From Candidatus Peribacteraceae bacterium (GTDB lineage Bacteria > Patescibacteriota > Gracilibacteria > Peribacterales > Peribacteraceae): a stretch of DNA of 64,000 bases. A program made the translations under genes and the position numbers. Shown here in pieces: positions 2,304-35,328 of the stretch (positions within the stretch are counted from its first letter, which is position 1; each line of letters opens with the position of its first letter). The notes below the pieces were generated by a model. It searched no databases. It was not told where the DNA came from and saw only the letters and a list, made by a program, of their open reading frames with translations. The DNA is taken from NCBI GenBank assembly GCA_028699155.1, contig JAQVVD010000004.1, positions 3,924-67,923 on the forward strand. The letters are read 5' to 3'.

Positions 2304-2400
2304 ACGCTACAATATCCCCGCTGTGCAACTCACTCTCTTCAGCAAACAACGGCGTGAAAGTGTTTTAGAAACACTGGCGATCTGCAAGCGTCTTGTAGGG

Positions 2401-17574: not shown

Positions 17575-18999
17575 TTAGAGCACTGTCGCTTCATCTGCCG
17601 CCGCCGTTTCGAACACTTGCTCCTTCATCTCGCTCTCACCGGTAAGCGGCTTGGCCTTTTTCCAACCGCTATACGGCAGATAGGCCAGCGTGATCACTGC
17701 AGAAAGCACATTCGTCGCAGCGAACCCCCACCAGATGCCCGCCTCATGGAGAGAGGTGTGCTTCGAAAGTATGTACGCCAGCGGGAATTGAATGACCCAG
17801 AGGGACACTAGGGAAAGCACCATGGAAGCAACCGTATTGCCTGCACCGCGCAGCGCCCCATAGAGCACCTGCTGCAAGCCCATGAAACCGAATGTCAGTG
17901 CGATAATCCGCAGAAACCTGCTCCCCATCTCGATCACTTCCTGATCATCGGGGATGAAGAAGGCGATGGACGGTCGCGCGAAGAGAAAGAAGGCGATGCC
18001 AAGGACAGAGAGGAGCAAGAAGCTGATCGTCGCACTCATTCTTGCTGTCTGGACCGCGCGTTCCCGTTTGCCTGCGCCGATATTCTGTCCGACCAGCGCA
18101 GATGTCGCCATGGAGAATCCCATTGCGGGAATGATAACGAAGCTGAAGATGCGCCCTCCGATCCCGTACGATGCCATCACGACCGTTCCGAAGCTCGCGA
18201 CGAGGAATACCATGACTGCCATTCCAAGCGCACGCATGGATTGCTCAACAGATGCGGGGAACCCCAGGCGCACCATTTGCCAGAGGAGCGGGAAATCCGG
18301 CGTGAAGTCATGCCACTGGAAGTGGATGCCGTAGCGGCCGCTCAGGAGGAAGAGGAGACCGATCACCGTTGCCACGGTCTGGGTTCCTACGGTCGCTATG
18401 GCTGCTCCGGTCACGCCGTACGCAGGCACGGGCCCGTAGCCCATGATGAAGAGCGGATCGAGCAGGAAGTTGAGGATAACGGTAGACAGCACGATGTACA
18501 TGGGAAGCTTCGCGCTCCCAACACCCTGCATGAGTGACTGGAAAACGAAGAAACCGAACATCATCGGCAATCCGATGAAGGAGATGCGCATGTAGGATGT
18601 TGCAGAGGGCAACACGTCCGGCGGAGCGCCCATCAGGCGGAGAATCGGCTCGGAAACGCCGTACCCGAGCAGCGCCAGCGGCAGAGCGATGATCGCAACC
18701 ATGATGATCGTCTGCGTTGCTACGTGATTCACCTGTGCGGTATCCCCCTTCCCCTTGTTCTGCGCGACAAGGATCGTCCCGGCGATGGCAAGGCCTCCGC
18801 CCATGGAAATGAGCAGAAAGATGATCGGGAAACTCAGGGAAACGGAGGCAACGGCGGCCGCACCGACTTTCCCCACCCAGTACGTATCCGTGAACTGGTA
18901 CGCGGTCTGCAGGAGGTTTGAAAGAACAATAGGAAAGGAGAGCGCGAAGAGCACCCGAACGATTGAGCCTTCCGTCAGTGATGGACGTGCTGATCGCAT
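17575..18999 (-). CDS. MATE family efflux transporter
   Basis: 474 aa, 12 TM helices, with a typical MATE N-terminus (LFALSFPIVLSNLLQTAYQFTDTYWVGKVG). Confidence 0.9.
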   Translation of the reverse strand: MRSARPSLTEGSIVRVLFALSFPIVLSNLLQTAYQFTDTYWVGKVGAAAVASVSLSFPIIFLLISMGGGLAIAGTILVAQNKGKGDTAQVNHVATQTIIMVAIIALPLALLGYGVSEPILRLMGAPPDVLPSATSYMRISFIGLPMMFGFFVFQSLMQGVGSAKLPMYIVLSTVILNFLLDPLFIMGYGPVPAYGVTGAAIATVGTQTVATVIGLLFLLSGRYGIHFQWHDFTPDFPLLWQMVRLGFPASVEQSMRALGMAVMVFLVASFGTVVMASYGIGGRIFSFVIIPAMGFSMATSALVGQNIGAGKRERAVQTARMSATISFLLLSVLGIAFFLFARPSIAFFIPDDQEVIEMGSRFLRIIALTFGFMGLQQVLYGALRGAGNTVASMVLSLVSLWVIQFPLAYILSKHTSLHEAGIWWGFAATNVLSAVITLAYLPYSGWKKAKPLTGESEMKEQVFETAAADEATVL

Positions 19000-19125
19000 G
19001 CTTTTTTTCAGTGAATGAGTGCGGATTGTAGCAGAATTCCGATATGAACAAATACGAGTACTTCTGGCATCACGAGAGCCGAAGTGAATGTGTACACAAT
19101 AGTTTACTAACTTAGTTTAATATTG

Positions 19126-19131
19126 TATAAT
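19126..19131 (+). promoter_or_regulatory. putative -10 box TATAAT, 7 nt upstream of GTG at 19139
   Basis: The sequence TTGTATAATATAATTCGTG lies in an AT-rich intergenic region, with no SD. Confidence 0.35.
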
Positions 19132-19138
19132 ATAATTC

Positions 19139-20155
19139 GTGAACATAGAAAAACCACAACTAGATGGAGGGAAGGAACAAGCAGATAAGACACCGGCAAG
19201 CCGAGAAGGAGCACTGCCCCCTCCAGATACGGCACAACAGGTGGAGCAACTGCTCACAGAAAAATTAAGTACGCGTCTTACGCGAGAACTTGCAGGAATT
19301 GCTACGGTTCGGATTCTTGAAGAGCCCAAGAAGGAGGGCGAACGACCGCGGGAGATTCTGCAAATTGATATTACAAATCGCGAGAAATGGCAGTCCCCTG
19401 AATGCCAGCGCAAGTTCCTGCCGCTCATCGGTGTGATTCTCCAGCAAACGTTCTTCCCGGAGAAAGATCCAAATGATTGGACTCCCGACGGATTAGTCCG
19501 AGAATACCACGACTGTGATCCGGATTTCACAGACCGCATTATCCTGCTTACGAATGGACAACGAGTCACGGGGTTTTCGATGGTAAAAAAATGCAACAAT
19601 ACACAAACGGACAATATTCCTGTTGTTGCTCTACAACTTAGATCTGTCGAAGCAGGTAAACGGTACAAAGGCACAGGAGCGCACCTCATTCATTTAATAC
19701 GACAAACATATCCTGATGCAATAATTATTTCCGCTACACATACGCCAGCAGCTGTTACTGCAACAAAACGCCATGCCGATGCGAGTGGAGAGCCTTTCTA
19801 TTTCTGTGGGTATCGCAATGGCGACTCGTCATTAATCAATACCCCAGCAGAGGAACATACCATCACTGAAGCGGAGGAAAGCTATCGGGATATGCTGCGT
19901 GTCGACTACGGCGGTTTGGACGAAGAAGAGCAGAAAGGAATTCCGCCACACTGTGTAAACTATGGAGAAGGTTCAATCTCTTGGACAGATGATCATCAGT
20001 GGAAACCGGGGGATACCAGCCCTATTGCAGCGACATTCAATCAACTGCGAAAATCAGTCTTTGACCAAGGCAGACAACAGGAAGGTATTTATGGAATGGC
20101 TACCGTACTACCAAAAAATTTCCTTACGAAGAAAGTTCCACCACAGGCGGAATAG
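19139..20155 (+). CDS. hypothetical protein (possible GNAT-like fold in the central part)
   Basis: 338 aa with a GTG start. The central segment VALQLRSVEAGKRYKGTGAHLIHLI resembles the R-x-x-G-x-G/A CoA-binding motif. Its 3' end overlaps the convergent decarboxylase gene by 32 bp. Confidence 0.5.
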   Translation: MNIEKPQLDGGKEQADKTPASREGALPPPDTAQQVEQLLTEKLSTRLTRELAGIATVRILEEPKKEGERPREILQIDITNREKWQSPECQRKFLPLIGVILQQTFFPEKDPNDWTPDGLVREYHDCDPDFTDRIILLTNGQRVTGFSMVKKCNNTQTDNIPVVALQLRSVEAGKRYKGTGAHLIHLIRQTYPDAIIISATHTPAAVTATKRHADASGEPFYFCGYRNGDSSLINTPAEEHTITEAEESYRDMLRVDYGGLDEEEQKGIPPHCVNYGEGSISWTDDHQWKPGDTSPIAATFNQLRKSVFDQGRQQEGIYGMATVLPKNFLTKKVPPQAE

Positions 20156-21407
20156 CCCGAATGAAATTCTGCGCAAGCGCATAAGTGTATGCCCCCTGGT
20201 AGGGCAAGCAGATGGTATCGCCTTCTTGCACATCGCTGCAGTGGAGGTAGTACCCCCACAGGTCATCAGGCGTACAGAGGGAACCGTAGAGGAAGAATGG
20301 AACCTCGCGCTCGGCACTGAAATGCGTGAGATTAAAGACGGGTGAGTAGTAGAAGTACTGGTACTTCTCCCAGCCGATCATATTGGTACCGGCATCCGTA
20401 ATCCCCATCCAGTCTTCTTTCTTATCAATGAGCGTCAGCAGAAGATGCATGCTGTTATTGGAGAGGAGCCTCCCCGGCTCTGCGTAGAGTTCTGCGTGTG
20501 GGAATGTGGTGCGCACTGCATCTTGATAGACCGCGGAAACTGCGCTGGCAAAATCCTGCATCGGGATAATCTGCGGCGGAATCACCCGTGGCTTGATGCG
20601 ATCGGCACGAATGTCTTGCAAAACTTTGGCGCTGGCATGCATGCGCTCCAGCTTGTCATTCCACGGATACGTGCATTCAAGCAGATCCTCCGGGTAGAGA
20701 CCTCCCCCCATATCTATGTATGTACATTCTGCACGCTCTTCCGGTGAAAAGTGCTCCCGTGCGTACGCACACACTTCCTGGATCGTGCGGACATATCGAT
20801 CTGGATTCCCATTGAAACTCGTATGGAAGTGCACTCCGGAAAAATCAAGTGATGCGTGCCGCTTCGCGGCATCGTAGAAAGGGCGCAACTGCGTAAGCGG
20901 CTGACCAAACTTGGTCCACCCGTGCTGATGATCGGTCACGACACGCAACCCGCAACGAACCTTCACTCCCCTCTCCTTCGCCATCCTCCCAAGCAATTCA
21001 AGCTCCCGCATGCTTTCCAGGTTCACCGTAATACGTCCCGGGTGGTCTACAACGTACGCGAACTCTTTTTCCGTTTTCGCCGGACCCGTGAGGAGTATCT
21101 GCTCAGCACCTGCAGCAAGCGCAAACGCAAGTTCCCGCGTGCTGGACGCATCCAGGCCACCACCTGCGGAGACAATGGTTTTGAGCAATCCGGCGTATGA
21201 ATTGCTCTTCATGGCAAAGAACGGATGAAGAGTGACGCCTTCGTGCGCGAATGCATCTGTTACTTTCTTATAGCTTGATAGGACCTCCGCCTCTTCGTAC
21301 ACAAAGAGCGGTTCCCCTGGAATTTTTTTCAGAGGAAGCAGTTTCTCCCGGAGCGCGGGAACGCTCTCTAGTCTGCGACGAGCCGCATCTGCAAGTGGCG
21401 ATTTCAT
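20124..21407 (-). CDS. PLP-dependent decarboxylase, Orn/DAP/Arg decarboxylase family (alanine racemase-like fold)
   Basis: PLP-lysine context FFAMKSN, GGGL phosphate-binding loop, EPGR motif, and C-terminal GSLCTPDD. ATG at 21407 forms an ATGA overlap with the upstream stop at 21404-21406. Confidence 0.85.
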   Translation of the reverse strand: MKSPLADAARRRLESVPALREKLLPLKKIPGEPLFVYEEAEVLSSYKKVTDAFAHEGVTLHPFFAMKSNSYAGLLKTIVSAGGGLDASSTRELAFALAAGAEQILLTGPAKTEKEFAYVVDHPGRITVNLESMRELELLGRMAKERGVKVRCGLRVVTDHQHGWTKFGQPLTQLRPFYDAAKRHASLDFSGVHFHTSFNGNPDRYVRTIQEVCAYAREHFSPEERAECTYIDMGGGLYPEDLLECTYPWNDKLERMHASAKVLQDIRADRIKPRVIPPQIIPMQDFASAVSAVYQDAVRTTFPHAELYAEPGRLLSNNSMHLLLTLIDKKEDWMGITDAGTNMIGWEKYQYFYYSPVFNLTHFSAEREVPFFLYGSLCTPDDLWGYYLHCSDVQEGDTICLPYQGAYTYALAQNFIRAIPPVVELSS

Positions 21408-22729
21408 GCGGGATGAGGGGACGGTGCACCAAGGATAGAGCATTCGATCGTTTGAAGCAGCTCCGCCCCATTGGAATTCATAGTCGGGACACCTTTGCCA
21501 TCGATATCGAACAGAGGAAAATTTGTGAAGAGCGCGGCGAGATTATAGAGACACGATACGGGAGAGGTGGCGGGAAGTGCGGCGTAGAAGAGCCCCTCAT
21601 TCTTACCGGAGAAAGCGCCGCGACCGGTTGGCTTCCACGTGCCGTTGCCCCAATGGTAGAACCCGACTGGCGGGATCGTAACATTCTTGTACCCCTTCGG
21701 CATGCGCTGAATCAGATAATCAAACTCAATGTACGATCCTCTGAATACCGTATCGGGGACGGTTGTCAGATTTGCTCCAAGGCGCTTGCCGGCGAGAGCC
21801 CTGCGAAATTCGGCGAAGAAATCGAGTCCGTGCAGTAATTCCGGCTGTACAGCAAGCTCCGGCGTGGAAGAGGACATGCGCGGATTGCATTCGAGTACGA
21901 CCACGGAACGATCTGATGCAATCAGATCGACATTCGCAACTCCACGAAATCCGGCTGTGCGCATTGCATTCGCCAAACGGAGAAGCACATCTTCAATTGT
22001 CCGAATCATTGCGGCGGGCACATCGCAGCGAGGTATCCAATGCACTCCCAGAAACTCTTGCAGTGGCGGTTCCGGTGCAAAACACTGCAACCGAAGCGCG
22101 GAAACAATCGTATCCGCACGCCCGATGAGCAGCGTCACACCGAGTGGCATGCCTTCCGTGAATGCCCTACAGAGGAGGGGCAGATACGCCTGAAACTTCG
22201 CAAGATACGCTTCCAATTCCTGTGCATTGGAGACGACTGTGTGCTCGATCGGGGGAAGAAGTGCAGGATGTTGCAGGACAACCGGAAATACTGATACACC
22301 GGATGCGTCTTCCGGCTTGCGCAGTATCCGTGTCATGGGAGTCGGCAGCCCGTTCCTCTCCAGGAACTTCTGAAAAAAGAGTTTCTCCTCGAATGTCTCC
22401 TGATAGGACCACGCCGTTTGCAGCAGCCTGATGCCATTCTGCCGCGCCCACGATTCTATGAACGGAGATGAGCGGTGTGAAAGGAAAAGTTCATCCGATC
22501 CATTCGCCCTCATCGCATCCAGGATATTCGTATGGCGAATTACCTCCTCGTCGTTTGAGAAAAGGTCCAAAGGCTTGTCTGCATCCAAAAAACATACCTG
22601 AACCTGCGGGAAATGCTCGCGTACAAACATGGCACTCACGCTCTTTTCTGTCGTGAGGAACAGCACATGCTCTGCGGCTTCTTTGGAAAAGAGGCATTCT
22701 ATCCCGTCAATGCACGCAATGCGTTTCAT
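21404..22729 (-). CDS. ATP-grasp domain protein (carboxylate-amine ligase type)
   Basis: 441 aa with the ATP-grasp hallmark FRGVANVDLI...VVVLECNPRMSS and a K-x-x-F-x-x-F-L...G-x-P-x-P segment (EKLFFQKFLERNGLPTP). ATGA overlap with the upstream gene. Confidence 0.75.
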   Translation of the reverse strand: MKRIACIDGIECLFSKEAAEHVLFLTTEKSVSAMFVREHFPQVQVCFLDADKPLDLFSNDEEVIRHTNILDAMRANGSDELFLSHRSSPFIESWARQNGIRLLQTAWSYQETFEEKLFFQKFLERNGLPTPMTRILRKPEDASGVSVFPVVLQHPALLPPIEHTVVSNAQELEAYLAKFQAYLPLLCRAFTEGMPLGVTLLIGRADTIVSALRLQCFAPEPPLQEFLGVHWIPRCDVPAAMIRTIEDVLLRLANAMRTAGFRGVANVDLIASDRSVVVLECNPRMSSSTPELAVQPELLHGLDFFAEFRRALAGKRLGANLTTVPDTVFRGSYIEFDYLIQRMPKGYKNVTIPPVGFYHWGNGTWKPTGRGAFSGKNEGLFYAALPATSPVSCLYNLAALFTNFPLFDIDGKGVPTMNSNGAELLQTIECSILGAPSPHPA

Positions 22730-23859
22730 GAGGTTTTTTGTGGTTGTTCGAAATAGTCGCAGACCACATTTGCGATACGCGTGACATCGGATTCTTCCAT
22801 GGACGGGGTAAGCGGAAGAACCATGATAGACGAGCCGAAGGTACGCAGGTCTTCCGGAAGTTCTTGCACGCCGCTTAAGTCCCAGAGCTGATCAAGCAGA
22901 ACATGCCGCTTCGCGGCATACATCACCAATTCATGTGCGGAAGCCAACGGTACGGAAATGAAATAGTAACAAACTTGTCCGCGGGCAACCGGGGAAAGAT
23001 CGTAGAAACGCATGCCCTTCGGACTTCGGCGACACAACACTTCATCATACGCCCCCCACAGGGCTGCGCGTTTCTCCGCAATGCGCTCATAGCGAAGGTG
23101 CTCGTAGAGCATACGATCCCATGGGAATGCGGCATGGGGAACAGTGGAAATTCCAATGGCATCGTTATGCAGCAAAAATACCCGCTCTGATGCATGCGCT
23201 AACCATGTGATGCCTGTAAGGCGATGCATCCGTAAAATCCACTGCTTCAGGAAAAATAGCAAAGAAGCCTTGATGCTGTACCAACTGATGCATCTGATGC
23301 GCCTGGCATCTACAGAAAACCCCGGCGGGCAAACGAGATGGGAAACCATGTACGGGGTACATTTCCGTGCACTGTCGATGTAAAAATGGTTCGGATGCAA
23401 AACAGTCAGCGGATGGAGGGGGAGAAGGGAGTGTGCCATGTCACTGATGAGCAGCGCGTCCCCGCGCAGAAAACGCACCCAATCCGTCTTCTTGTGCAAC
23501 AGCGTTTCTTTCCCCAGTACATTGTAAATCAGGACAACCCGCGGATGTTCCGACTGTAGTTTCTGCATAAAATCCACCGGATCGGCATCGAGTGTTTCCG
23601 GATCGATCTTGTAGAACGCCAGGTTGAAATGTCGGCGAAAATATTCGGATGTTTCCTGGCAGTACAATGAAGGAAGAAGCAGGGTTTCCTTCTGGAATGC
23701 GAAGTGCTGAACCAAGTATCCAAACGCATCTACGAACGAAAGGAAGGACACTATGCGCCGTCCGGGCATTTTGCTCTGACGCCGCAGCCTATAGAAGCGC
23801 AGCGGGAATAGATACGTTGCAGTCAGGACAATCCTTGGCATAGTTTCAGAGGGATACAC
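22726..23859 (-). CDS. DegT/DnrJ/EryC1-like PLP-dependent enzyme (aminotransferase fold), tentative
   Basis: The segments LLLPSLYCQETSEYF...FYKIDPETLDADP...VVLIYNVLG...LLISDMAHSL follow the layout of the DegT family. The lysine motif is not clear. The start is uncertain (23859, 23841 or 23769). Confidence 0.5.
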   Translation of the reverse strand: MYPSETMPRIVLTATYLFPLRFYRLRRQSKMPGRRIVSFLSFVDAFGYLVQHFAFQKETLLLPSLYCQETSEYFRRHFNLAFYKIDPETLDADPVDFMQKLQSEHPRVVLIYNVLGKETLLHKKTDWVRFLRGDALLISDMAHSLLPLHPLTVLHPNHFYIDSARKCTPYMVSHLVCPPGFSVDARRIRCISWYSIKASLLFFLKQWILRMHRLTGITWLAHASERVFLLHNDAIGISTVPHAAFPWDRMLYEHLRYERIAEKRAALWGAYDEVLCRRSPKGMRFYDLSPVARGQVCYYFISVPLASAHELVMYAAKRHVLLDQLWDLSGVQELPEDLRTFGSSIMVLPLTPSMEESDVTRIANVVCDYFEQPQKTS

Positions 23860-24919
23860 GGAGAGGATACCCTACTGAGATGTATCCGTCCTGGACGCGG
23901 AATCCGCCGGTGGCAGGATCATCGTCAAAATCCATATTTCCGCTGTCGATATCTGCAACATCGACCTCAAATGCGAGCGCAATATGTGCCGCGGTTGTCA
24001 GGGAAACATTCGACTCGTACATGCAGCCGATAAGAACGATCTTATCGTGTTCTTTCGCATAGCGAATGATGCGCTCCGCATTCAATAAGCCGCCGCACTT
24101 CATGAGTTTCACATTCACACCTGCTGCGTAGTCCCCATCGAGAAGTTGTTTGACGCCTGCGAAACGCACTGCTGCTTCATCTGCGACAACGGGGATACTC
24201 TGCATATGGTGGAGCGTGCGCAATCCCTCGAGATCTGCTGCCGAAACGGGCTGTTCAATCAGCACTATGCCTGAATCTTTTAACGCATTCAGGCATTCCA
24301 CTGCTTCAGCCATTGCATACCCCTGATTTGCATCGAGAAGCAAGGAGCCGTCTGGGGGGAGAAGGGCGAGAGACTTCTGTATCTTGCGCAAATCCGTAGC
24401 CAAATCCGTACCGCACTTCATCTTGATTGACCGAAACCCCTCGTCTAAACGGCGCCGTACTTCCTCTGCCGTCGCTCTCTCCTCCAGAATTCCGATGGTC
24501 ACTGTTGCGGGGCACGCGGAACGTATGGGAGGCAATACATCCGTAAAAGACAACAAATTCTGCTGGAGAAGCAATGAGCATAGTGCTTCCTCAGCAGCGG
24601 ATTGTGCAGATGGGGAATCTGCAAATGCCTCTTCGAGGTATGCGTGCACTCCATAGAGAGATCCGGGAGTTGCCAATGCCTCAGAATGTAAACGTTCTTG
24701 GAGGCTCTCCAAAGCCATTTCCAGCGTTTCACCAGTGACCTCCGGATCAGGTGACCCCGACCCGATGCCGACTCTGCCTTCCACATCGCACAGACGAACG
24801 AAAACAACATCCGCCGTCTCCACCGTTTCATACGCGATGGAAAACGGTTCGCGAAAATGCATGGTATGCCTATGAACCTGTATATCCTCTACCGGAGCAA
24901 GGAAAGGAAGGTCACGCAT
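23846..24919 (-). CDS. enolase-superfamily dipeptide epimerase (L-Ala-D/L-Glu epimerase / MLE subgroup)
   Basis: KxK motif (SIKMKCG), metal ligands in LLLDANQGY, LIEQPV and VVADEA, and a second catalytic Lys in VNVKLMKCGG. I moved the start to ATG at 24919 (MRDLPFLAPVEDIQV). Confidence 0.85.
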   Translation of the reverse strand: MRDLPFLAPVEDIQVHRHTMHFREPFSIAYETVETADVVFVRLCDVEGRVGIGSGSPDPEVTGETLEMALESLQERLHSEALATPGSLYGVHAYLEEAFADSPSAQSAAEEALCSLLLQQNLLSFTDVLPPIRSACPATVTIGILEERATAEEVRRRLDEGFRSIKMKCGTDLATDLRKIQKSLALLPPDGSLLLDANQGYAMAEAVECLNALKDSGIVLIEQPVSAADLEGLRTLHHMQSIPVVADEAAVRFAGVKQLLDGDYAAGVNVKLMKCGGLLNAERIIRYAKEHDKIVLIGCMYESNVSLTTAAHIALAFEVDVADIDSGNMDFDDDPATGGFRVQDGYISVGYPLRVSL

Positions 24920-26309
24920 CGAGAGCCTGGAAGTCTTCAAGTTCCTCGGAAAAAATGGATTGTAACCGAGGCAGAATTTCCTCAGGGAGGTTCGGCGAGG
25001 CATTCACGCCAAGATACTGACGCCTCAGACGCTTCTCTTCTTTCTCGATCTTTGGTTGCACCTCCCTGACAAAGCGTTCAATACTTGCTCCTTTCTGGTT
25101 CATGCGCTTCGCAAGTAAGAAGGCCAGCCCAAGCTCTTCCTGCGAACCGTATACCGGATTCTGGGGATCGTACTCAAAGAACGTTTTGTAGATGTCAGCA
25201 TGTTGCTCCGCAAAAAGATTTTTGGAAAAACCGATCTGCTTGGCATCCACACCACAACCCGCACACAGTGCATAGATATATCCGCACTTCGTGCATTTCT
25301 GGCACCAACGGGAATGCTCCGCCGCGGAGGAATCCGCCATGCATGACATTTGGTATGTACCAATTCTCGGGTAGCGATGATGGAGGATGGCAGTGATGGC
25401 AAGCTCATAGAGCGGCTCCATTAAACTGATGACTTCTATTTTCCTGCCAAGGAGCAACGTTGCCAGCAACGTCTGCTGCGAGAGCCAGTTGCTATGCTGA
25501 TCATATCCCGCCTTGTAAGTGCGCACTCCTTCCCGGTCGATGAAGATGTCATTGCAGGACTGCTCGTTCCCCGGGAACGTGTACTGCGCGTTGAGCGCAT
25601 ATGCAAAGGGAAGCGTAAGCAGTGCTGCGTACTCGGTTGTATGCAGTCCCCAGCCCAACTCCGTTTTGAGACCCCAGTACGTCCCGTAACGAAAGATGCC
25701 GGGGCCGAACTCAACGACGTGTATCGTCGTACCGAATTCCTTCTGGAATTTCTCGATCAGCCCTTTCTTATGCTCATACTCAAACATGTGGGACGGCTCG
25801 ATGAAGAGCACCGGAATCGGCTCCATCCCCAACTCCCGGCTGAGAGCAAAACTGAGCAGGCTCTCTTTCCCGAACGAAAACGGGATGATCGCACGAACAG
25901 GCGTATCTTTTCGTTTGATGAAATCGACCGAAGCGGGCGTTGCGATTTTGTTATTCGCAAATGACCAATTCGTATTGAAGAAATCCTTTATGTACGCAAG
26001 AGAGGATGCTTCATCCGATTGTGCGGAAGACGGCATATCATAGATGCCATTCTTGAAGAGGAATGTTTCCGCTGCCGGGCGGTTGGTGCGCATCTGCACG
26101 GTACGAACACCGAGCATCTGCGGCAGAAAAAGCGTGGTGCTATACGCCAGGTTGTCGCGGAGTATCTCCTTACGATCCTGCGGGTACTGTTCCCAGATTC
26201 CAGGAGGGTAGCGAATGGGAAACGCCTCCTCATTCACCAGGATATCTATCCCCTCGTCGGTGATACGTGCGTCGATTGTGAGCGATGTAGGGATCGGATG
26301 CGCAGCCAT
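24912..26309 (-). CDS. PP-loop-like (adenine nucleotide alpha-hydrolase-like) protein with a C-terminal Cys cluster, function unknown
   Basis: 465 aa. IIPFSFGKESLLSF resembles the SGGKDS PP-loop, and the Cys cluster is WCQKCTKCGYIYALCAGCG. The family assignment is tentative. Confidence 0.55.
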   Translation of the reverse strand: MAAHPIPTSLTIDARITDEGIDILVNEEAFPIRYPPGIWEQYPQDRKEILRDNLAYSTTLFLPQMLGVRTVQMRTNRPAAETFLFKNGIYDMPSSAQSDEASSLAYIKDFFNTNWSFANNKIATPASVDFIKRKDTPVRAIIPFSFGKESLLSFALSRELGMEPIPVLFIEPSHMFEYEHKKGLIEKFQKEFGTTIHVVEFGPGIFRYGTYWGLKTELGWGLHTTEYAALLTLPFAYALNAQYTFPGNEQSCNDIFIDREGVRTYKAGYDQHSNWLSQQTLLATLLLGRKIEVISLMEPLYELAITAILHHRYPRIGTYQMSCMADSSAAEHSRWCQKCTKCGYIYALCAGCGVDAKQIGFSKNLFAEQHADIYKTFFEYDPQNPVYGSQEELGLAFLLAKRMNQKGASIERFVREVQPKIEKEEKRLRRQYLGVNASPNLPEEILPRLQSIFSEELEDFQALDA

Positions 26310-26350
26310 GTCTCAAGCACAGGGAGAAGGATAGAAGCAGCGGATGAACA

Positions 26351-28741
26351 TCAGGAAGCGATTTGTTCCACTCGTGTGCCGCGAACCCATGCCGGCGTCT
26401 CACGCTTGTACCATTCCACGGCACTCCAGATGATGCTCTCCAGGAGTTCTCCGTAATCATACCCTGCGAGCTTTGCTGCCGAAGGCAAAAAGTCCGTGGG
26501 TTCGATTCCCGGATTCGGGTTGAGTTCCAGTACGAACGGATTCCCTTCCCGGTCTATGCGCATCTCGATCTCCGCGTAATCTCTGCAATCGAAAATCGAG
26601 AACATATCGAGTGCGATCTCGCTCACCAACTTATCGAGTTTCGGCGGGATTTTTGCAGGCTTCTCCACGCGAATCGACTTGAGGATATCCTGGTACTTTT
26701 CCGTCATGAGTTCCCATGTGTAAATATGCCAATGCCCTTCGGGCATTTTATCGAATACGGAACGTATCAGCGGGAGCACTTCCGCCTCATCCCCGTTCCC
26801 GAGCACGCACGCATCTATCTCATCGCCTTCAATATATTCTTCGATCAGAGCCGGCTGCCGCATATCCTGGACAATCGTCCTGAGCTGTTTCTTCAGTTCG
26901 CGCTCATTTGTGACCACCGAGCAGAGACCGATGCCATAGTAGTTATCCGCAAGCGCGGGTTTGACCATCAGCGGGAATTCAAGATTGGGATTAATCTTCT
27001 CTCCGATCTCTTCAATATAATCCCACTCGGGAGTAGGGATATTATGATAATCGAGCATCTTCTTCACATCGATTTTGTCCAACGCAGCGGCAATGGTCGC
27101 AGAACTGGATCCACTGAAAGGCAGGTGCAGCATTTCGAGCAATGCCGCGATATGCACGCCGAGGAACGGCGCATTGGGATCTGCTTCGCAGAGATTCAGC
27201 ACGAAATTGAAGTTCGCATCCTGTATCTTGCGAATGGGTATCGGCATCTGGCTCACGTCGATGAGATCAGCATGGTATCCGCGTTCCATCAGCATACTGC
27301 GCACGCTCTCCCCTGCGGGAGAATTTGAGAGAATGCCGATGTACATGCTGCGCATATCCTTCAAATTTGAAGATCGCAATTTGGCAAGTCGCGATGCTTC
27401 GATGATTTGGCTGCGGACAACCGATGCGGTGTCGAGTGCATGTTCGCGGCTTGTTTTGCCAAGGGAAGAATCCCTGTGGAATTTCGTCACATTGAATTCT
27501 ATTCTTCCCATAATCCGCTCAAGAGCAGCTTGCGCCTGCTGGTGCGTCTTCCCGCTTGCAACAACCCACCCGGCATTCTCGTATCCCTCAGGAGGCACGA
27601 GAACGGCATCACCCACCTTTTTGGTGAGGGATAAATGGATAAGACTGGGCGATTTCAAAATATCTTTCGGATAGGAAATGCCGCTCACAATCCCGGAATA
27701 CGGAGGAATGAAATACTCGCATGCGACGCATTCCCTTCGCGTCTTCTTCTCTCGCTGCACATACACCCCGCATGCAACCTGCAACCCAATGTCCACCAGG
27801 TTTTCATCTTGTGAATGTTTCACGTACAAATAGATGTCATCTCCTCCCATACGTGAGCCGACTTCGACAATCTTGGGACCCTGCGGAGTCGTCTTGATCT
27901 CAATATGCGCCAGGCTATCCGCCACGCCCAACGCTATCATCGCCGACTCGGCGAGCTTGATTACCGCTTTCTCCGTCTCCTCATCCAAACGCGCGGGGGC
28001 ACAATCCCCTCTCTCCACGAAATATGGCAATTTCATAGGATATTTTTCATTGATCCCGATTGTATGAGGAATACCGTACTGCGCGTAACACTCTACGCTG
28101 ACCTCCATTCCCTCCATGTATTCTTCGTACAGAAACATACCCTCGTTGTACTTGAAGATCGGGTTGAACTGCTCAGTGCAGTTGAGCAGCAGATACCGCA
28201 GTGTCACTTCTGCTTCCTTGACGTTGTTCACGAGTACCACAAACTCGCTGTCCGCACCCCATGCCGGCTTCATGACAGCGGGGAACCCGATGCGCTCAAT
28301 CGCCTTCTGCAAATCGCGCTTACTGCGCACCATGTGAAACATGGGAATACCGAGACCCGTCTCCTGCAAACGCTTACGCATGGCGAATTTGTTACGCGTT
28401 ACCACCGCTGTTTTGTAGGTGTTACCTGGCAGATTGAGTTTTTCACAAATGCGCCCGAGGAGAGGCACATCGTCCTCCCAGAATGTGATCGCCCCATCAA
28501 ACTTCACGTGGGGATTGTGACGGAGAAACGCTTCAATTTTCTTGATGCACTCCTCATGATTGAACGTATCTGCTTCGATGAAATAATCGACAATGTGCTG
28601 CTTGCGCTGGTCTGGAGCTTTGTCGAGCAGAACAATTGTCATGCCGAGTTTCCTGGCTCTTTCGATCGTGAATCGCTTCTTCTTGCCTCCGGAATTTACG
28701 AACAGCACTGTTTTTCCTGCAAGGCCACTCTTCGTGTTCAT
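26351..28741 (-). CDS. double ATP-grasp ligase (N-terminal L-amino-acid-ligase-like domain plus C-terminal D-Ala-D-Ala-ligase-like domain)
   Basis: 796 aa from ATG at 28741. The N half contains FPAVMKPAWGADSEFV...HIEIKTTPQGPKIVEVGSRMGG. The C half contains LEMLHLPFSGSSSATIAAALDKIDVKKML...PLMVKPALADNYYGI...YAEIEMRIDREGNPFVLELNPNPG. Confidence 0.8.
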   Translation of the reverse strand: MNTKSGLAGKTVLFVNSGGKKKRFTIERARKLGMTIVLLDKAPDQRKQHIVDYFIEADTFNHEECIKKIEAFLRHNPHVKFDGAITFWEDDVPLLGRICEKLNLPGNTYKTAVVTRNKFAMRKRLQETGLGIPMFHMVRSKRDLQKAIERIGFPAVMKPAWGADSEFVVLVNNVKEAEVTLRYLLLNCTEQFNPIFKYNEGMFLYEEYMEGMEVSVECYAQYGIPHTIGINEKYPMKLPYFVERGDCAPARLDEETEKAVIKLAESAMIALGVADSLAHIEIKTTPQGPKIVEVGSRMGGDDIYLYVKHSQDENLVDIGLQVACGVYVQREKKTRRECVACEYFIPPYSGIVSGISYPKDILKSPSLIHLSLTKKVGDAVLVPPEGYENAGWVVASGKTHQQAQAALERIMGRIEFNVTKFHRDSSLGKTSREHALDTASVVRSQIIEASRLAKLRSSNLKDMRSMYIGILSNSPAGESVRSMLMERGYHADLIDVSQMPIPIRKIQDANFNFVLNLCEADPNAPFLGVHIAALLEMLHLPFSGSSSATIAAALDKIDVKKMLDYHNIPTPEWDYIEEIGEKINPNLEFPLMVKPALADNYYGIGLCSVVTNERELKKQLRTIVQDMRQPALIEEYIEGDEIDACVLGNGDEAEVLPLIRSVFDKMPEGHWHIYTWELMTEKYQDILKSIRVEKPAKIPPKLDKLVSEIALDMFSIFDCRDYAEIEMRIDREGNPFVLELNPNPGIEPTDFLPSAAKLAGYDYGELLESIIWSAVEWYKRETPAWVRGTRVEQIAS

Positions 28742-28844
28742 GGGGAAACGTGCAATGGGAAAATAGAAGTAAATGTGCGCAGAGCGTACGCCTGCTATAC
28801 CCAGACGCAAGAGGCATTCTCATGACGAATGACACTGATGCATA

Positions 28845-31166
28845 CTACTTCACATACGTCGTTGAATTCACCGAAAGCTGACCAATATCCACCCACCCGA
28901 TGGTGGTGATTCCGTCGCTCCACTCAATGGTGCCAATTGCCGTTGGATCGCTGAGCGACTGCAGTGACGCCTGCAGAATAGACGTACCCGGATTCATCTG
29001 CGGAGTCACGATGAACCCCCGCAATTCCAGATCAATGGATCCTCCGCTCTGGATAACGGTGCCGATCTGCGACGATGCGAGGTTATCGCACGTGACCGAG
29101 ATGGACCCTGTGTATGCTGACGCCGCACACTCGTGCGTCTTCGTCGGGTCCAATGCATTCAGCAACTTGAAGCTCCCTGCGAGGAATTGGACATTCGTCG
29201 CATTGACCGTAAAGACGATGCGCTGGAATTCTACCTCATTACGGCCATCGGGCATGTTGTCGTTCTGCGCCGCAGTGAAGCGGAACTTTCCAAAGGAACG
29301 GGTGCCAGTCGGCACAGAGGATTGGTCCGGATCGCTATTCGCATTCTGGATCGACAGTATTTTTGCGAATACCACTGTATGCGTCGGTCCGATAATGTCC
29401 TGATCAGCCCCGGGCACAGACCTCCCCAGGAATACTTCGCCTTCCTCAATCGTATCGCCGTCATTGAACGTGAGGTCTTCCTGTGAATTTACGCCTTCCG
29501 CCTGCACCGCCTGGATCGCAGGATCCGCCTCCATGCGAACCGCTGCGCTCGCACCGCTCGTCCCGCCCTGCTCTTCCGACTTCACGACGCCGCGCACGAT
29601 GTACGTGACTTCCTGATCACGAGGTACGACGAATGACGTGCTCGCGCAGAACTGGCCGGAAACGACCGGGCTGCAATTGGTTGTCCACGCAGTCGCAATC
29701 GGGAACGTCCCCCCGGCCGCATAGAGGAGCAGTTGCGAGAAGACCGTTTCCTCCGCATGCAGTTTCACCGTTTTGACGCGCACATCTTCCCCGTTCGCAC
29801 GGAACGTGATCCTCAGGAGGTCATCCGTTGTTTTCCCTGCAAGTAATTGCCGACTTCCAACGGGTTGCGAAGCCGCCGTCACATACAAGTTGCCGCGGCC
29901 GACGATCTGAAATAACGGGGCAGACGGGAACGTGTACACGCCGATCCAGCAAATTGAGGTCTCCGCACAATCGGCTCCGTCCAGTTCGATGCCCGTGAGG
30001 TCGCGACCATCCGCCATACCGATGCCCTGTACAAAGCGCGCATTATCCAGAGCAAACTCAACCCCAAAACTGCCCGAACTGATCCCTGCCTGGAAATCTG
30101 CAACCAGTTCCACGCGCACGGCAGCTCCCTCCGGCACAGCGATGGCGATACTGCTGAATGAAACGGTGCTGCTGCCTGGAGACGCCGTTCCTGCAAGTGC
30201 ATCTGCAATGCCATCCCCGTCACTATCCGCGTACACGCGGAAATTCGTTGCGGCAGAGAGCGTTCCTGCCTTCGCCCGGAACACGAGGTTTGTCATAATC
30301 ACATCCTGCCTGCCTGCAATCGCGTCAAAAGCGAGCAGCGTCACGTCTTTCTCGCCCGGCGAAACGGTCGTGACGCTCACAGGCCGCTGCTCGATGCGCA
30401 ACGCGCCATGCTGCACTGTCTCTTCGACAATCACACAAATCTTGCTGCATCCATCTCCGTTCTCCAGATTGCCGTCGTCACACTGCTCCCCGAATTCCAG
30501 GATGCCATTGCCGCACACGGGCGTCGCCTGCTGCGCCTGGCTTGCATCCTGCGATGAAGAAGAGGACGCAGGCAGCATGCTGCTGACATCCTGCAGCTCC
30601 TCTCCCAGCGCGACGATGAGGTACGCCATGTCGCTGCGCGTGAGCTTGTAACTTCCGTCCTGCGGGAAGTATTCGAAGAGACCCCGCTCCGCGGCAACCT
30701 CAAAGTACGGCACGTACCAGTACTCCGGCGCATACACGTCGGGCGGCGTGGGAACATTCCATGCCCGTTCCGCCATCTTGAGCGCCTCCGCGAGGTTGAC
30801 CGTCTGCGCGCCGTGGAACGTCCCATCGGGATACCCGCCGATGATGCCGCGCTGTTTCGCCGTGCATGCGTGCGACCAGAACCACTGTGACTCTCCCGTA
30901 AAATCCGCAAAACACCTGTCATTGTACACGTTGTACGATTCCGTTCCGTACACCGCGAGCATCAGAATTTTCAGAAATTCCGCGCGGTTGATTGCAATGT
31001 CCGGGCGATAGATTCCATGTCCATACCCCTGGACGATGCCAAGTTCTGCGATCTGCTCTATGTACTGCTCGTGCGGATGGCTGACCGTGTCTATGAAACG
31101 TCCCGCCTGTGCCACAGGAACGAGAAAAAAGAATGTGAAAAGGAGAAGTGTGACTCGTATGCGCAT
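28845..31166 (-). CDS. SLH-domain cell-surface protein with a cysteine-rich repeat and a long beta-rich region
   Basis: Signal peptide MRIRVTLLLFTFFFLVPVAQA, SLH repeats (RPDIAINRAEFLKIL; GYPDGTFHGAQTVNLAEALKM), and CGNGILEFGEQCDDGNLENGDGCSKIC (myxococcal-type Cys-rich repeat). I moved the start to ATG at 31166. Confidence 0.85.
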   Translation of the reverse strand: MRIRVTLLLFTFFFLVPVAQAGRFIDTVSHPHEQYIEQIAELGIVQGYGHGIYRPDIAINRAEFLKILMLAVYGTESYNVYNDRCFADFTGESQWFWSHACTAKQRGIIGGYPDGTFHGAQTVNLAEALKMAERAWNVPTPPDVYAPEYWYVPYFEVAAERGLFEYFPQDGSYKLTRSDMAYLIVALGEELQDVSSMLPASSSSSQDASQAQQATPVCGNGILEFGEQCDDGNLENGDGCSKICVIVEETVQHGALRIEQRPVSVTTVSPGEKDVTLLAFDAIAGRQDVIMTNLVFRAKAGTLSAATNFRVYADSDGDGIADALAGTASPGSSTVSFSSIAIAVPEGAAVRVELVADFQAGISSGSFGVEFALDNARFVQGIGMADGRDLTGIELDGADCAETSICWIGVYTFPSAPLFQIVGRGNLYVTAASQPVGSRQLLAGKTTDDLLRITFRANGEDVRVKTVKLHAEETVFSQLLLYAAGGTFPIATAWTTNCSPVVSGQFCASTSFVVPRDQEVTYIVRGVVKSEEQGGTSGASAAVRMEADPAIQAVQAEGVNSQEDLTFNDGDTIEEGEVFLGRSVPGADQDIIGPTHTVVFAKILSIQNANSDPDQSSVPTGTRSFGKFRFTAAQNDNMPDGRNEVEFQRIVFTVNATNVQFLAGSFKLLNALDPTKTHECAASAYTGSISVTCDNLASSQIGTVIQSGGSIDLELRGFIVTPQMNPGTSILQASLQSLSDPTAIGTIEWSDGITTIGWVDIGQLSVNSTTYVK

Positions 31167-31238
31167 GCATACATTGTATGCAAATGCGCGCAATTGCCGC
31201 ATTGTTAAATTGTAAAATTGTTCAATTACTACTCACGA

Positions 31239-31842: not shown

Positions 31843-31941
31843 CTATCTGCGCTTCTTCGTGGCCTTCTTCTTGGTTGCCTTCTTCTTCGTGGCCTTCTTC
31901 TTGGTTGCCTTCTTCTTCGTGGCCTTCTTTTTGACTGGCAT
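31843..31941 (-). CDS. possible 32-aa lysine-rich peptide MPV(KKKAT)x5 KKRR
   Basis: This is the last Met of the listed 88-aa ORF, and only this C-terminal part looks like real sequence. No SD is present. It is encoded by the 15-bp tandem repeat. Confidence 0.3.
   Translation of the reverse strand: MPVKKKATKKKATKKKATKKKATKKKATKKRR
31852..31926. repeat. tandem repeat, 5 x 15 bp (alternating CTTCTTCGTGGCCTT / CTTCTTGGTTGCCTT, i.e. 2.5 x 30 bp)
   Basis: Read directly from the sequence. It encodes KKKAT repeats on the minus strand. Confidence 0.9.
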
Positions 31942-32148: not shown

Positions 32149-33360
32149 TTAGAATTGTTGGAACATGTGTCCGAGTTTTTCTTTTTTCGTCTTCAGATAT
32201 TTTCTCTGCCGTTCATTCTTCGCAAGGAACTCGATCGGAATCTGTTCCGCAATGTGAATGCCGTACCCCTCGAGTCCGATCACTTTCTTGGGATTGTTCG
32301 TGAGCAAACGTACGTGCCCCACTCCCAGATCTTTCAGAATCTGCGCCCCGATCCCGTAGTCGCGCAAATCAGCCGGCAGTCCCAGCATCTCGTTGGCTTC
32401 CACCGTGTCATACCCCTGTTGCTGCAATTCATACGCGCGCACTTTATTCGCAAGACCGATTCCCCTCCCCTCCTGCCGGAGGTACAGGAGCACGCCCTGC
32501 CCGTGCTCGCTGATCACCTGCATCGCGCGATGGAGCTGCTGTCCGCAATCACAGTGGAGTGACTGCAACACGTCACCGGTGAGGCATTCCGAATGCACGC
32601 GAACGAGGCTCGGTACCAGCGGCTGGATCTCCCCCATTACGAGCGCCACGTGTTCGCCACCCGTGAGCATGTCACTGTAGACGCACATGCGCCACGTGCC
32701 CGTTTCCGTCTCTAAGAACGTTTCCGCCTCCCTGCGAACATGCGCCTCGCTCCGACGCCGATACGCGATAATATCGGCGATGGATACAATCGGCAGATCC
32801 CACTGCTCCGCGAATTTCTGGAGCGCGGGCAGCCGCATCATCGTCCCGTCATCGTGCATCAGCTCGCTGATCACCGCTCCCTCGCGCAAGCCCGCCAGTT
32901 TGCAGAGATCGACGGATGCCTCCGTATGACCCGCTCTGCGCAACACTCCGCCTTCCGCAGCGCGCAGCGGGAACACGTGCCCCGGCCTGCACAAGTCCTG
33001 TGGCTTCGCTACAGGATTGATCGCAACCGCAACCGTGCGCGCGCGGTCATGCGCAGATATGCCGGTGGTCACGCCATCCGACGCTTCGATGCTCACTGTG
33101 AACTGCGTGCGCAGCCGCGCCGTATTGTTGGGCACCATCGGCGGCAAATCCAATTGGTTCGCAATGGCATTGCTGAGCGCCAGGCAGAGCACTCCTCCCG
33201 TGTGGCGAATCAGGAACGCCACCCGCTCCTCCGTCACGCACTCTGCTGCCATGACCAAATCTCCTTCGTTCTCGCGCTCCTGATCATCGACGACGATGAG
33301 CATGCGCCCCGCCCGGAGCGCTGCGATTGCATCCTGAATGGAAGAGAATTGTGCCGCCAT
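32149..33360 (-). CDS. ribBA: bifunctional 3,4-dihydroxy-2-butanone-4-phosphate synthase / GTP cyclohydrolase II
   Basis: DHBP synthase N half ([19 protein letters not shown]) and GCH II C half ([21 protein letters not shown]). I moved the start to ATG at 33360 ([11 protein letters not shown]). The listed N-terminal extension overlaps the upstream gene. Confidence 0.93.
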
Positions 33361-33415
33361 GGACGGTGGAGTGTAGCACGTTTGCCGGAAGAGAAAGACG
33401 CAGAACCTTCTTTTC

Positions 33416-34810: not shown

Positions 34811-34860
34811 GAGGAAAAGGGCAAACCGATCGTACCCTGAAACCGCGCAGGCACAATGCC

Positions 34861-35328
34861 TCAAGACTGCAAGCGTTTTAGTTGTGCAAGCGAATGTAAG
34901 ACGGCGAATGCGCACTCCCTCCCCTTCTCCGGTCTCGCTCTGGCCTGTGCGATGTCGGTGACATGCAGTACGCCGTATGCGAACGGCATGCCGTATTCCA
35001 GTTGCACATCCATCATGCCCCGCGCGACTGCGCGGGAGAGATGCTCTGCGTGTTTCGTCTCTCCCTGGACGACGATTCCCAGACCGATGATGGCATCGGC
35101 CGATCTGTTGCGCGCAATGGCGGTGCCAATGAGCGGCACTTCCGATGAGCCGAATACGGGGAAGAGCGAGATGTTCCCCTCTGGGATTCCCGCTGCCAGC
35201 AATGCGTCTTTCGCTGTAACCACCATCGCTGCCACTTCCTCCTCGTAGTAGAGCGCATGCACGATTGCCACGCGCCAGGCGGGATCAACGCCGCCAGGTA
35301 GCCGGAAGTCGATGGAATTCTTCTTCAT
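34861..35328 (-). CDS. ribH: 6,7-dimethyl-8-ribityllumazine synthase
   Basis: 155 aa from ATG at 35328, with VFGSSEVPL and GIVVQGETKHAEH motifs. It forms an ATGA overlap with the ribE stop. Confidence 0.9.
   Translation of the reverse strand: MKKNSIDFRLPGGVDPAWRVAIVHALYYEEEVAAMVVTAKDALLAAGIPEGNISLFPVFGSSEVPLIGTAIARNRSADAIIGLGIVVQGETKHAEHLSRAVARGMMDVQLEYGMPFAYGVLHVTDIAQARARPEKGRECAFAVLHSLAQLKRLQS

Follow-up and report, generated by a model that had tools for sequence, protein, structure and literature searches.

Results

Organisation of the operon

The DNA analysed here is a stretch of 64,000 nt, hereafter the window, from a Candidatus Peribacteraceae bacterium (contig JAQVVD010000004.1, positions 3,924 to 67,923, assembly GCA_028699155.1). 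Its positions 20124-28741 carry six minus-strand genes, which we call g1 to g6 and which form one tightly packed operon rich in ATP-grasp ligases. All six open reading frames (ORFs) listed by a first-pass annotation, made from the letters alone, are present, and each of the six enzyme classes it had named was verified by domain, profile or fold matches. The operon and the gap that precedes it comprise the following features:

28742-28844, minus strand: spacer of 103 nt between the stop of an upstream S-layer homology (SLH) gene and the g1 start, the sole sizeable gap 5′ of the operon
26351-28741, minus strand: g1, 796 amino acids (aa), ATG at 28741; fusion of two ATP-grasp ligases
24912-26309, minus strand: g2, 465 aa; QueC-like PP-loop ATPase carrying a Cys cluster and distantly homologous to MurL
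23846-24919, minus strand: g3, 357 aa; dipeptide epimerase of the enolase superfamily (MLE subgroup)
22726-23841, minus strand: g4, 371 aa; divergent DegT/DnrJ/EryC1-like fold-type-I pyridoxal phosphate (PLP) enzyme, with an alternative GTG start at 23859
21404-22729, minus strand: g5, 441 aa; single ATP-grasp ligase of a distinct family
20124-21407, minus strand: g6, 427 aa; fold-type-III PLP decarboxylase of the diaminopimelate (DAP)/Orn/Lys family

The junctions were read directly from the sequence. The two ATGA start/stop overlaps of the first-pass annotation were seen at 22726-22729 (g4/g5) and 21404-21407 (g5/g6), and g1 and g2 are spaced by 41 nt. Two further short overlaps had been proposed. 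The one between g2 and g3, 8 nt at 24912-24919 (ATGCGTGA), is real, whereas the other, 14 nt at 23846-23859 between g3 and g4, requires the GTG start of g4 at 23859. We favour the ATG at 23841, which follows the g3 stop by 4 nt, because the alignment with homologue N-termini and an independent gene call on a public contig fit it better; g3 and g4 are tightly packed with either start. Scanning for promoters and terminators found no convincing signal of either kind in the operon interior and no minus-strand sigma-70-like match in the 28742-28844 spacer, promoter-like matches being rarer than in shuffled sequence, and transcription may read through from the SLH gene into g1. At the other end, a weak hairpin (20136-20152) with a T-rich tail to about 20126 overlaps the g6 3′ end. 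The GC content falls to 0.52-0.54 across 18-30 kb, a stretch that holds the operon and the genes next to it, from 0.56-0.60 on either flank; this dip over 18000-30000 is compatible with an acquired accessory island.

Conservation and modularity of the gene cluster

A g2 profile was run against 185,579 species, each represented by one genome, and gave 156 relatives, from which 80 species-level loci were taken for comparison; the ORFs of these loci were searched first with the window proteins and, in a second round, with family hidden Markov models. The genes stay linked in relatives: g1 adjoins g2 in 35 of the 80 loci, and the full set of six is found in 6, labelled Falkowbacteria, Jacksonbacteria, Saccharibacteria, Parcubacteria and Buchananbacteria, plus one TPA-labelled contig. 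Because the same six-gene order recurs in these distant genomes at 22-56% aa identity, the arrangement is far beyond chance. The remaining genes tend to come in pairs. Indeed, g5 and g6 occur together in 16 loci, with g6 alone in four and g5 alone in two (both cut by a contig end), while g3 and g4 occur together in 14, with g3 alone in seven and g4 alone in one; g4 is absent from many clusters that retain g1, g2, g5 and g6. The system is thus modular, with g1 and g2 as its core and g3+g4 and g5+g6 as optional pairs.

Relatives of g2 come almost entirely from bacteria of the candidate phyla radiation (CPR) or from DPANN archaea. Homologues of g2 carry the names Patescibacteria, Peribacteraceae, Peregrinibacteria and further CPR groups, and the closest, at 71% identity, belong to metagenome-assembled genomes of Peribacteraceae and Patescibacteria, which places the window in the Peregrinibacteria. 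Several CPR-type clusters (L009, L014, L016, L010, L072 and others) carry the unverified labels Bdellovibrionota, Acidobacteriaceae, Gammaproteobacteria, Vicinamibacterales or Methanosarcinales, which may reflect mis-binning, automatic labelling or real horizontal transfer. Among 1.84 billion representative proteins, the g2 family amounts to 178 clusters at E≤1e-30 and to 1347 at E≤1e-3, the latter including MurL-like proteins, and all public homologues are annotated as hypothetical. Both the rarity of the g2 family and the GC dip at the locus mark the pathway as accessory rather than core. Our literature search found no description of this gene cluster and no study of any member.

The neighbourhood of the cluster was surveyed by all-against-all clustering of the flanking ORFs and by a Pfam census that took in 141 such ORFs of 33 loci. 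No Mur ligase, MraY, MurG, glycosyltransferase, nucleotidyltransferase, flippase, polymerase, transporter or protease recurs beside the cluster in these surveys. A simpler relative of the system, found in Gottesmanbacteria and DPANN loci, consists of two divergent g2 paralogues and one to four single-domain ligases similar to D-Ala-D-Ala ligase (Ddl).

Some features of individual loci are recorded here in their own right. In the Gottesmanbacteria-type loci (L022-L048), two MurL-like paralogues, convergent or in tandem, accompany Ddl-like ligases, for example around L023:9161-9832 (minus strand), and a spermidine-synthase-like methyltransferase lies alongside in 12 loci. A Microgenomates contig (L086:12427-14053) has a gene of the S66 LD-carboxypeptidase family after its g2 and Ddl-like genes. 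These arrangements may reflect lineage synteny and not function. On a 359-kb contig (L087:1657-9343), an insert of about 8 kb parts g1 from g2-g6 and encodes a Lyase_1 protein (argininosuccinate/adenylosuccinate-lyase family), an amidohydrolase, a GNAT acetyltransferase, a class I/II aminotransferase and a phosphoenolpyruvate carboxykinase.

Two ligases of different kinds are fused in g1

The N-terminal half of g1 (aa ~1-440, bases 27422-28741) is an L-amino-acid ligase (LAL). It exceeds the Pfam cut-offs for ATPgrasp_N (38.7 bits), ATP-grasp_4 (73.9 bits) and LAL_C2 (47.9 bits), and its PDB sequence matches include the LAL BL00235 (3vot, 2.7e-37) and BacD (1.9e-14), so that the same segment combines an ATP-grasp core and the C-terminal domain specific to LALs with resemblance to LALs that have been characterised. 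In NCBIfam it scores best with a family that takes its name from an argininosuccinate lyase.

The C-terminal half (aa ~476-775, within bases 26351-27316) is Ddl-like, with a match above cut-off to Pfam Dala_Dala_lig_C (6.6e-31) and to the Ddl structure 3r23 (1.1e-23). It lies below every curated NCBIfam cut-off for Ddl, scoring 168.7 bits with NF002378 (cut-off 243) and 127 with TIGR01205 (cut-off 245.65). When it is aligned to 3r23, the ATP-grasp Mg ligands E and N are retained, the YARVDM of 3r23 becomes YAEIEM, the Mg/substrate loop is ELNPNPGIEPTDFLP, the segment after the Mg-binding E-x-N is altered and IEPTDF follows NxxPG. The positions replaced in g1 include those that we take to be the D-Ala-binding and catalytic residues Arg255, Asp257 and Ser281 of E. 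coli DdlB. The replaced residues and the missed cut-offs argue that this half is not a D-Ala-D-Ala ligase; judged by these motifs, it is a Ddl-type ligase with a predicted different substrate.

A putative ATP-driven epimerase related to MurL

For g2, as for g4, single-sequence searches of Pfam and NCBIfam gave no usable match, and the class assignments come from family profiles and predicted folds. The single g2 sequence has no Pfam match, with only PAPS_reduct appearing below threshold, and a PDB sequence search with the g2 profile returned nothing significant. Its AlphaFold2 model, with a predicted local distance difference test score (pLDDT) of 91.4, has as top Foldseek matches QueC (2pg3, 1e-05), 3bl5, QatC, Cap9 and TtuA, each of them a PP-loop ATPase that has a Cys cluster. 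In an alignment of 17 sequences, a PP-loop-like motif, F146-G147-K148-x-S150, and the four cysteines C323, C336, C339 and C342 are invariant. Fold, P-loop-like motif and Cys cluster together place g2 among the QueC-like PP-loop ATP pyrophosphatases.

The first-pass annotation had called g2 a PP-loop-like protein with a Cys cluster; fold and Cys motif were borne out, but the homology to MurL had been missed. Profile comparison by hhalign with a MurL-family protein (P0091) gave a probability of 99.1 and E 1.6e-18 over 278 columns, a span that takes in both the PP-loop and the Cys motifs: FSFGKES of g2 is aligned with GGGKDS, and SC...WCxxCxKC is common to both. In addition, PF26298 is recorded among the precomputed annotations of g2 family members. 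With its PP-loop ATPase core and Cys-rich C-terminal region, g2 belongs to the MurL superfamily. It is not a MurL orthologue by the curated equivalog score, reaching 41.7 bits with NCBIfam NF041275 (cut-off 700; 5e-11), over the C-terminal 164 residues only, and no MurD2-type Mur ligase partner adjoins it among the scanned window genes or recurs in the 33 surveyed loci. Since g2 is homologous to MurL, it is most likely a second, ATP-driven epimerase of the operon, predicted to activate the C-terminal carboxylate of a peptide in an AMP-forming reaction and to epimerise it.

A dipeptide epimerase with a reversed charge

The assignment of g3 is clear at the level of sequence. It matches Pfam MR_MLE_C (1.5e-38), and its best PDB matches are dipeptide epimerases: 3jva (5.8e-44), 3rit and YkfB of B. 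subtilis (1jpm). The catalytic set aligns to all three structures, namely IKMKCG (the KxK motif), LDANQ, IEQP, ADE, KLMKCGG and ADIDSG, and DLDSG is kept throughout the g3 family. KxK, the D/E/D metal ligands, the second Lys and the DxD motif that define an enolase-superfamily dipeptide epimerase are therefore all found, and other members of the g3 family retain them.

An L-Ala-D/L-Glu epimerase orthologue it is not. Scores with the corresponding NCBIfam models are 150.1 (NF041118, cut-off 500) and 71.6 (NF011708, cut-off 343), and the position of YkfB Arg24 is occupied by Glu31 in g3, with Glu in 20 of 21 aligned family sequences and Gln in the other. As we understand its role, YkfB Arg24 binds the gamma-carboxylate of the substrate Glu. 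The charge reversal argues against an L-Ala-D/L-Glu substrate and for one with a cationic side chain, a prediction made from this one residue and the role that we assign to Arg24.

A probable aminotransferase

The single g4 sequence has no Pfam match even at E≤10, PF01041 (DegT/DnrJ/EryC1) included, and no NCBIfam match. Its family profile finds sugar aminotransferases in the PDB (7n63, 3.3e-05) and reaches PF01041 proteins at 1e-15 to 1e-9 in a database of 5.8 billion proteins. The AlphaFold2 model (pLDDT 90.2) resembles ArnB-like 4lc3 (2e-13), WecE, DesV, DesI and ArnB in Foldseek, with template-modelling scores of about 0.6. D134, S157 and R159 are invariant in the family and K160, 26 residues past D134, is at least 90% conserved; presumably the Asp-to-Lys spacing resembles that of ArnB. 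A fold-type-I PLP fold, the Asp and a candidate Schiff-base Lys thus place g4 at the level of the DegT superfamily, and from profile and model it is probably a DegT-like aminotransferase with predicted PLP binding.

The third ligase and the decarboxylase

The g5 protein passes the Pfam cut-off for ATP-grasp_3 (27.8 bits, cut-off 23.2), a profile of its family finds the carbamoyl-phosphate synthetase ATP-grasp domains (2.1e-10), and E280-C-N-P-R284 is invariant in the family. For g6, the barrel domain Orn_Arg_deC_N (PF02784) is found at 5.6e-26 (91.8 bits, cut-off 23.4), the C-terminal sheet domain falling slightly under its cut-off (20.6 against 23). The PDB relatives of g6 are DAP decarboxylase (2p3e, 1.6e-18), BtrK (3e-15), N-citrylornithine decarboxylase and D-Orn/D-Lys decarboxylase. 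In the alignment to 2p3e, the PLP Lys (AMKSN), HFH, GGG, EPGR and the catalytic Cys (SLCTPDD) are all present, and the PLP Lys and the catalytic Cys are invariant in 21 homologues; barrel domain and catalytic residues make g6 a fold-type-III PLP decarboxylase.

Within this class, g6 is distinct from LysA. It scores 133.7 bits with the lysA model TIGR01048 (6e-39, cut-off 297.9), and the second-best NCBIfam match is an exosortase-A-associated decarboxylase (1e-24). In LysA we take the catalytic Cys to be followed by an acidic residue, in a CE[ST] motif; g6 has C-T-P and its family C-[TMLQAD]-[PMAS], so that neither the equivalog score nor the acidic residue of a LysA orthologue is found. DAP and D-Orn/D-Lys decarboxylases act at D-centres, and the closeness of g6 to these enzymes fits a decarboxylation that comes after epimerisation.

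Discussion

What would such a set of enzymes make? We think it reasonably probable that this accessory CPR operon assembles a short peptide or pseudopeptide without a ribosome or a non-ribosomal peptide synthetase (NRPS), following a logic in which a residue is ligated and the new C-terminus is then epimerised. What suggests the scheme is the set of enzyme classes with their intact catalytic residues, together with genes that are closely packed and inherited as modules. The LAL half of g1 would join two L-amino acids, and g3 would invert the C-terminal residue of the free dipeptide. Further residues would be added by the Ddl-like half of g1 and by g5 through acyl-phosphates (ATP to ADP and Pi), whereupon g2 would adenylate the new C-terminal alpha-carboxylate (ATP to AMP and PPi), as proposed for MurL, to drive a one-way L-to-D inversion. 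Removal of the terminal alpha-carboxylate by g6 would leave an amine end, and g4 would make or modify an amino building block. The first-pass annotation had proposed a short D-residue peptide or pseudopeptide with an amine end, and this chemistry is supported, since it fits three ligase domains, epimerisation and a terminal decarboxylation.

Ligation followed by inversion has been described in two settings. In an engineered cascade, an LAL followed by an enolase-superfamily dipeptide epimerase yielded L-X-D-Y dipeptides in vitro (PMC13338154). In the MurD2/MurL system, the L-Glu that the ligase attaches is inverted by MurL at the expense of ATP, for which a mechanism of alpha-carboxylate adenylation was proposed (PMC8788868).

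How does the operon compare with these and other known systems? As in MurD2/MurL of Xanthomonas and Micromonospora, an ATP-dependent ligase is followed by a MurL-type enzyme, g2 lying directly after the ligase gene in the 35 loci mentioned above. However, the ligase partner is an ATP-grasp fusion and not a Mur ligase, no UDP-MurNAc genes lie nearby and the g2 family is essentially confined to CPR and DPANN. With the LAL pathways (BacD of bacilysin, TabS of tabtoxin, RizA, BL00235) the operon shares a clear LAL and the making of peptide bonds without ribosome or NRPS, but here the LAL is fused to a Ddl-like ligase and shares an operon with two epimerases, another ligase and a decarboxylase, and the warhead-forming genes of those pathways are absent from the operon. 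The dipeptide epimerases YkfB and YcjG have the same full catalytic set and DxD as g3; the known members are assigned to murein-peptide recycling, whereas g3 sits within a biosynthetic operon and has Glu at the Arg24 position.

Pairs such as BtrJ/BtrK in butirosin and FslA/FslC in rhizoferrin biosynthesis likewise form an amide with a ligase and then use a DAP-decarboxylase-like enzyme, and g5 and g6 travel as a pair. Unlike them, the operon has neither the acyl carrier protein BtrI nor an NRPS-independent siderophore synthetase, and g5 is of a separate ATP-grasp family. The analogy with BtrJ/BtrK drawn in the first-pass annotation holds in so far as BtrK is among the PDB relatives of g6, and fails for the carrier protein: no gene of that size was found in or beside the operon, and no carrier-protein family is among the 25 listed recurrent neighbour families. 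The ligases of mycosporine-like amino acid synthesis (ATP-grasp MysC and Ddl-like MysD) are also used together, to form amide or imine bonds, as separate proteins and not fused as in g1, and none of the core genes for 4-deoxygadusol (DDGS/EEVS, O-methyltransferase) is among the scanned window genes. The first-pass annotation had likewise noted no other gene of the butirosin or mycosporine pathway here.

The possibility raised in the first pass that the genes are orthologues of a characterised pathway did not hold either, as the NCBIfam scores remain at 168.7 against 243 for Ddl, 150 against 500 for L-Ala-D/L-Glu epimerase, 133.7 against 297.9 for LysA and 41.7 against 700 for MurL. Its second refuting condition, a lack of conserved linkage in relatives, is contradicted by the loci compared above. 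We conclude that the operon is not a member of the MurD2/MurL, LAL or BtrJ/BtrK systems, because their defining features were tested and not found. By analogy, it would work like MurD2/MurL, LAL dipeptide pathways and BtrJ/BtrK-type pairs combined, and can be placed within NRPS-independent ATP-grasp peptide synthesis.

Circumstantial hints suggest that a cationic residue similar to Lys, Orn or DAP, in other words a Lys/diamine theme, is involved. These are the Glu at the Arg24 position of g3, the DAP/Orn/Lys family of g6 and the SET, FemAB-like, aminomutase and lysyl-transferase-like accessories of related clusters. A wider proposal, possible but doubtful at present, is that CPR and DPANN share a general, hitherto overlooked D-peptide route in which stand-alone ATP-grasp ligases are paired one-to-one with MurL-type PP-loop epimerases, each residue being inverted at the expense of ATP once it has been added at the C-terminus. 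The window version would add a decarboxylase acting at a D-centre and would make a cationic, protease-resistant Lys/diamine pseudopeptide with a role at the envelope or towards a host.

Several points weigh against the ligate-then-epimerise pathway. Product, substrates and order of steps are deduced from gene content. The relationship of g2 to MurL is only distant, and PP-loop enzymes such as QueC and asparagine synthetase also catalyse amidation, so that g2 may act as an amidoligase and not as an epimerase. DegT-like enzymes usually act on keto-sugars, which makes g4 a poor fit to a purely peptidic product. BtrK, also close to g6, acts at an L-centre, and the specificity argument for g3 depends on the role that we assign to YkfB Arg24. 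Finally, the SET, FemAB-like and aminomutase genes that contribute to the cationic theme are absent from the window.

Why should such an operon matter? Although CPR bacteria count as metabolically minimal, this multi-enzyme, ATP-costly pathway has been kept in many of their lineages, which implies that its product is under selection. If the proposed scheme is true, MurL-type epimerisation would not be limited to the peptidoglycan of a few Proteobacteria and Actinobacteria, and its ATP-driven chemistry would stand as a modular tool for D-peptides beside the E-domains of NRPSs and the radical S-adenosylmethionine (SAM) epimerases. The operon would also be a compact natural set of stand-alone ligase, epimerases and decarboxylase for biocatalytic D-peptide synthesis, and a candidate function is offered for about 180 clusters of hypothetical proteins in uncultured episymbionts.

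Alternative functions

The best-named relatives of four of the six genes are peptidoglycan enzymes (Ddl, MurL, L-Ala-D/L-Glu epimerase and LysA), and one Microgenomates relative of the cluster carries an S66 LD-carboxypeptidase-family gene. The operon might then make or remodel a stem peptide or cross-bridge, replacing or supplementing racemases and Mur ligases. For example, L-Ala-D-Glu could arise from the LAL and the epimerase, a C-terminal D-residue from the Ddl-like and MurL-like enzymes, and Lys from peptide-bound DAP through the LysA-like enzyme. We regard such a murein-related role as unlikely. All four matches are far under the orthologue cut-offs, the Ddl substrate residues are replaced in g1 and the charge is reversed in g3 at the position where YkfB holds the Glu side chain. 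Moreover, Mur ligases, MraY and MurG are neither recurrent neighbours of the cluster in the surveyed loci nor found among the scanned window genes, the distribution is patchy and rare, and related systems occur in DPANN archaea. Peribacteria genomes, for their part, have been reported to contain all peptidoglycan synthesis genes (PMC4736985).

The closest folds of g4 are nucleotide-sugar aminotransferases, and g6 matches the exosortase-A-associated decarboxylase at 1e-24. Both would be expected if the operon decorated a surface glycan, with g4 making an amino sugar and the ligases amide-linking amino acids or the decarboxylated amine to a sugar amine or uronate, in a manner resembling amidated capsular or O-antigen sugars or the sets of exosortase-associated decarboxylase and FemAB-like proteins. 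FemAB-like GNATs in eight clusters and the reported heavy investment of Peribacteria in amino sugars (PMC4736985) point the same way. Against this, genes for a glycosyltransferase, nucleotidyltransferase, flippase or polymerase do not recur next to the cluster, many clusters with g1, g2, g5 and g6 lack g4, and g3 retains the DxD typical of enzymes that bind a free dipeptide. The SLH surface protein directly upstream of the operon had been taken in the first-pass annotation as a positional argument for envelope decoration; it does not serve as one, as the SLH neighbour is confined to this genome, the nearest relative having only a weak match on the opposite strand, and is not conserved in other lineages. 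All in all, glycan decoration appears quite improbable.

Still less can be said for the tailoring of a protein or ribosomal peptide, in which a RimK-like extension of the C-terminus would be followed by epimerisation or decarboxylation and by SET-type methylation. RimK-type and other ATP-grasp enzymes do extend protein C-termini, weak RimK matches were obtained here in Pfam and NCBIfam, and SET-domain proteins recur beside the cluster. But the packed operon contains no short precursor-like ORF, the substrates of the LAL and dipeptide-epimerase families are free amino acids and dipeptides, and neither a protease nor an exporter is a conserved neighbour of the cluster, so we hold this explanation to be very improbable. 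A QueC-like anti-phage defence module, brought to mind by QatC and Cap9 among the structural neighbours of g2, has next to no chance and was dropped, because PADLOC gave no match for any of the seven proteins and the partners are metabolic enzymes, with no QatA, QatB, QatD or genes of the CBASS defence system.

Flanking genes and accessory families

Several protein families accompany the cluster in other genomes. In the Pfam census, SET (7 ORFs) and FemAB-like GNAT (4 ORFs) are recurrent. The housekeeping families SecA, LysRS and SerRS also recur in the Gottesmanbacteria-type loci, where they look like lineage synteny. Small SET-domain proteins, which are normally protein lysine methyltransferases, lie inside or beside the cluster in at least nine distinct loci of several CPR lineages. 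Their sites include L051:6733-7203, between g1 and g2, L033:11351-11764, directly after g2, L013:12205-12624 and L015:12431-13189, both after g6, and L070:6631-7362 and L049:10705-11508. FemAB-like GNATs (PF13480, Acetyltransf_6) of about 300-350 aa are found in the eight loci L021, L083, L049, L015, L012, L011, L033 and L056, for instance at L021:8476-9390 (between g2 and g6), L083:12762-13823, L049:9757-10707 and L015:8857-9930. In one Jacksonbacteria cluster, g1 and g2 are separated by an LPG_synthase_C-like gene. In two archaeal loci of DPANN type (L050:5753-7918, minus strand, and L063:6482-8536, plus strand), a lysine-2,3-aminomutase (radical SAM and LAM_C) is fused to a Ddl-like ATP-grasp ligase and adjoins two MurL-like g2 paralogues, an arrangement that suggests a product containing beta-lysine.

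In the window itself, one gene meets the operon at its 3′ end:

19139-20155, plus strand: GNAT-like gene, 338 aa, a possible accessory; convergent with the operon, overlapping the g6 3′ end by 32 nt

Its product has no Pfam match and aligns with ORFs in or beside the cluster in two other loci (L006, 11217-12143; L019, 13377-14354), which give weak Acetyltransf_1 matches. The gene is seen in only three clusters, and its membership is uncertain.

On the other side, the SLH-domain gene directly upstream of g1 occupies 28845-31202 (minus strand) and a second SLH gene 33416-34915 (minus strand). In phmmer searches, the SLH protein matched the window's own sequence (L001) and, weakly and on the opposite strand, the closest relative, while a MATE exporter matched the window's own sequence only. 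Both genes were rejected as members of the system, being not conserved and having different contexts in other phyla. The two SLH genes flank a RibBA gene (32149-33738), the first SLH protein also has a Cys-rich DUF4215/myxococcal repeat, and a 20-nt repeat occurs at 31859-31878 and 31889-31908, 30 nt apart.

Two loci farther away in the window are recorded as observations of their own. A radical SAM/SPASM enzyme followed by an ABC exporter (transmembrane part and ATPase) lies at 703-4146 (plus strand), a pair typical of loci that mature peptides in the manner of ribosomally synthesised and post-translationally modified peptides. The isoleucyl-tRNA synthetase ORF at 48264-52628 (plus strand, 1454 aa) contains two His_Phos_1 stretches at about aa 740-888 (7.1e-84), which sit between the catalytic and the anticodon-binding domains and represent an unusual insertion or fusion.

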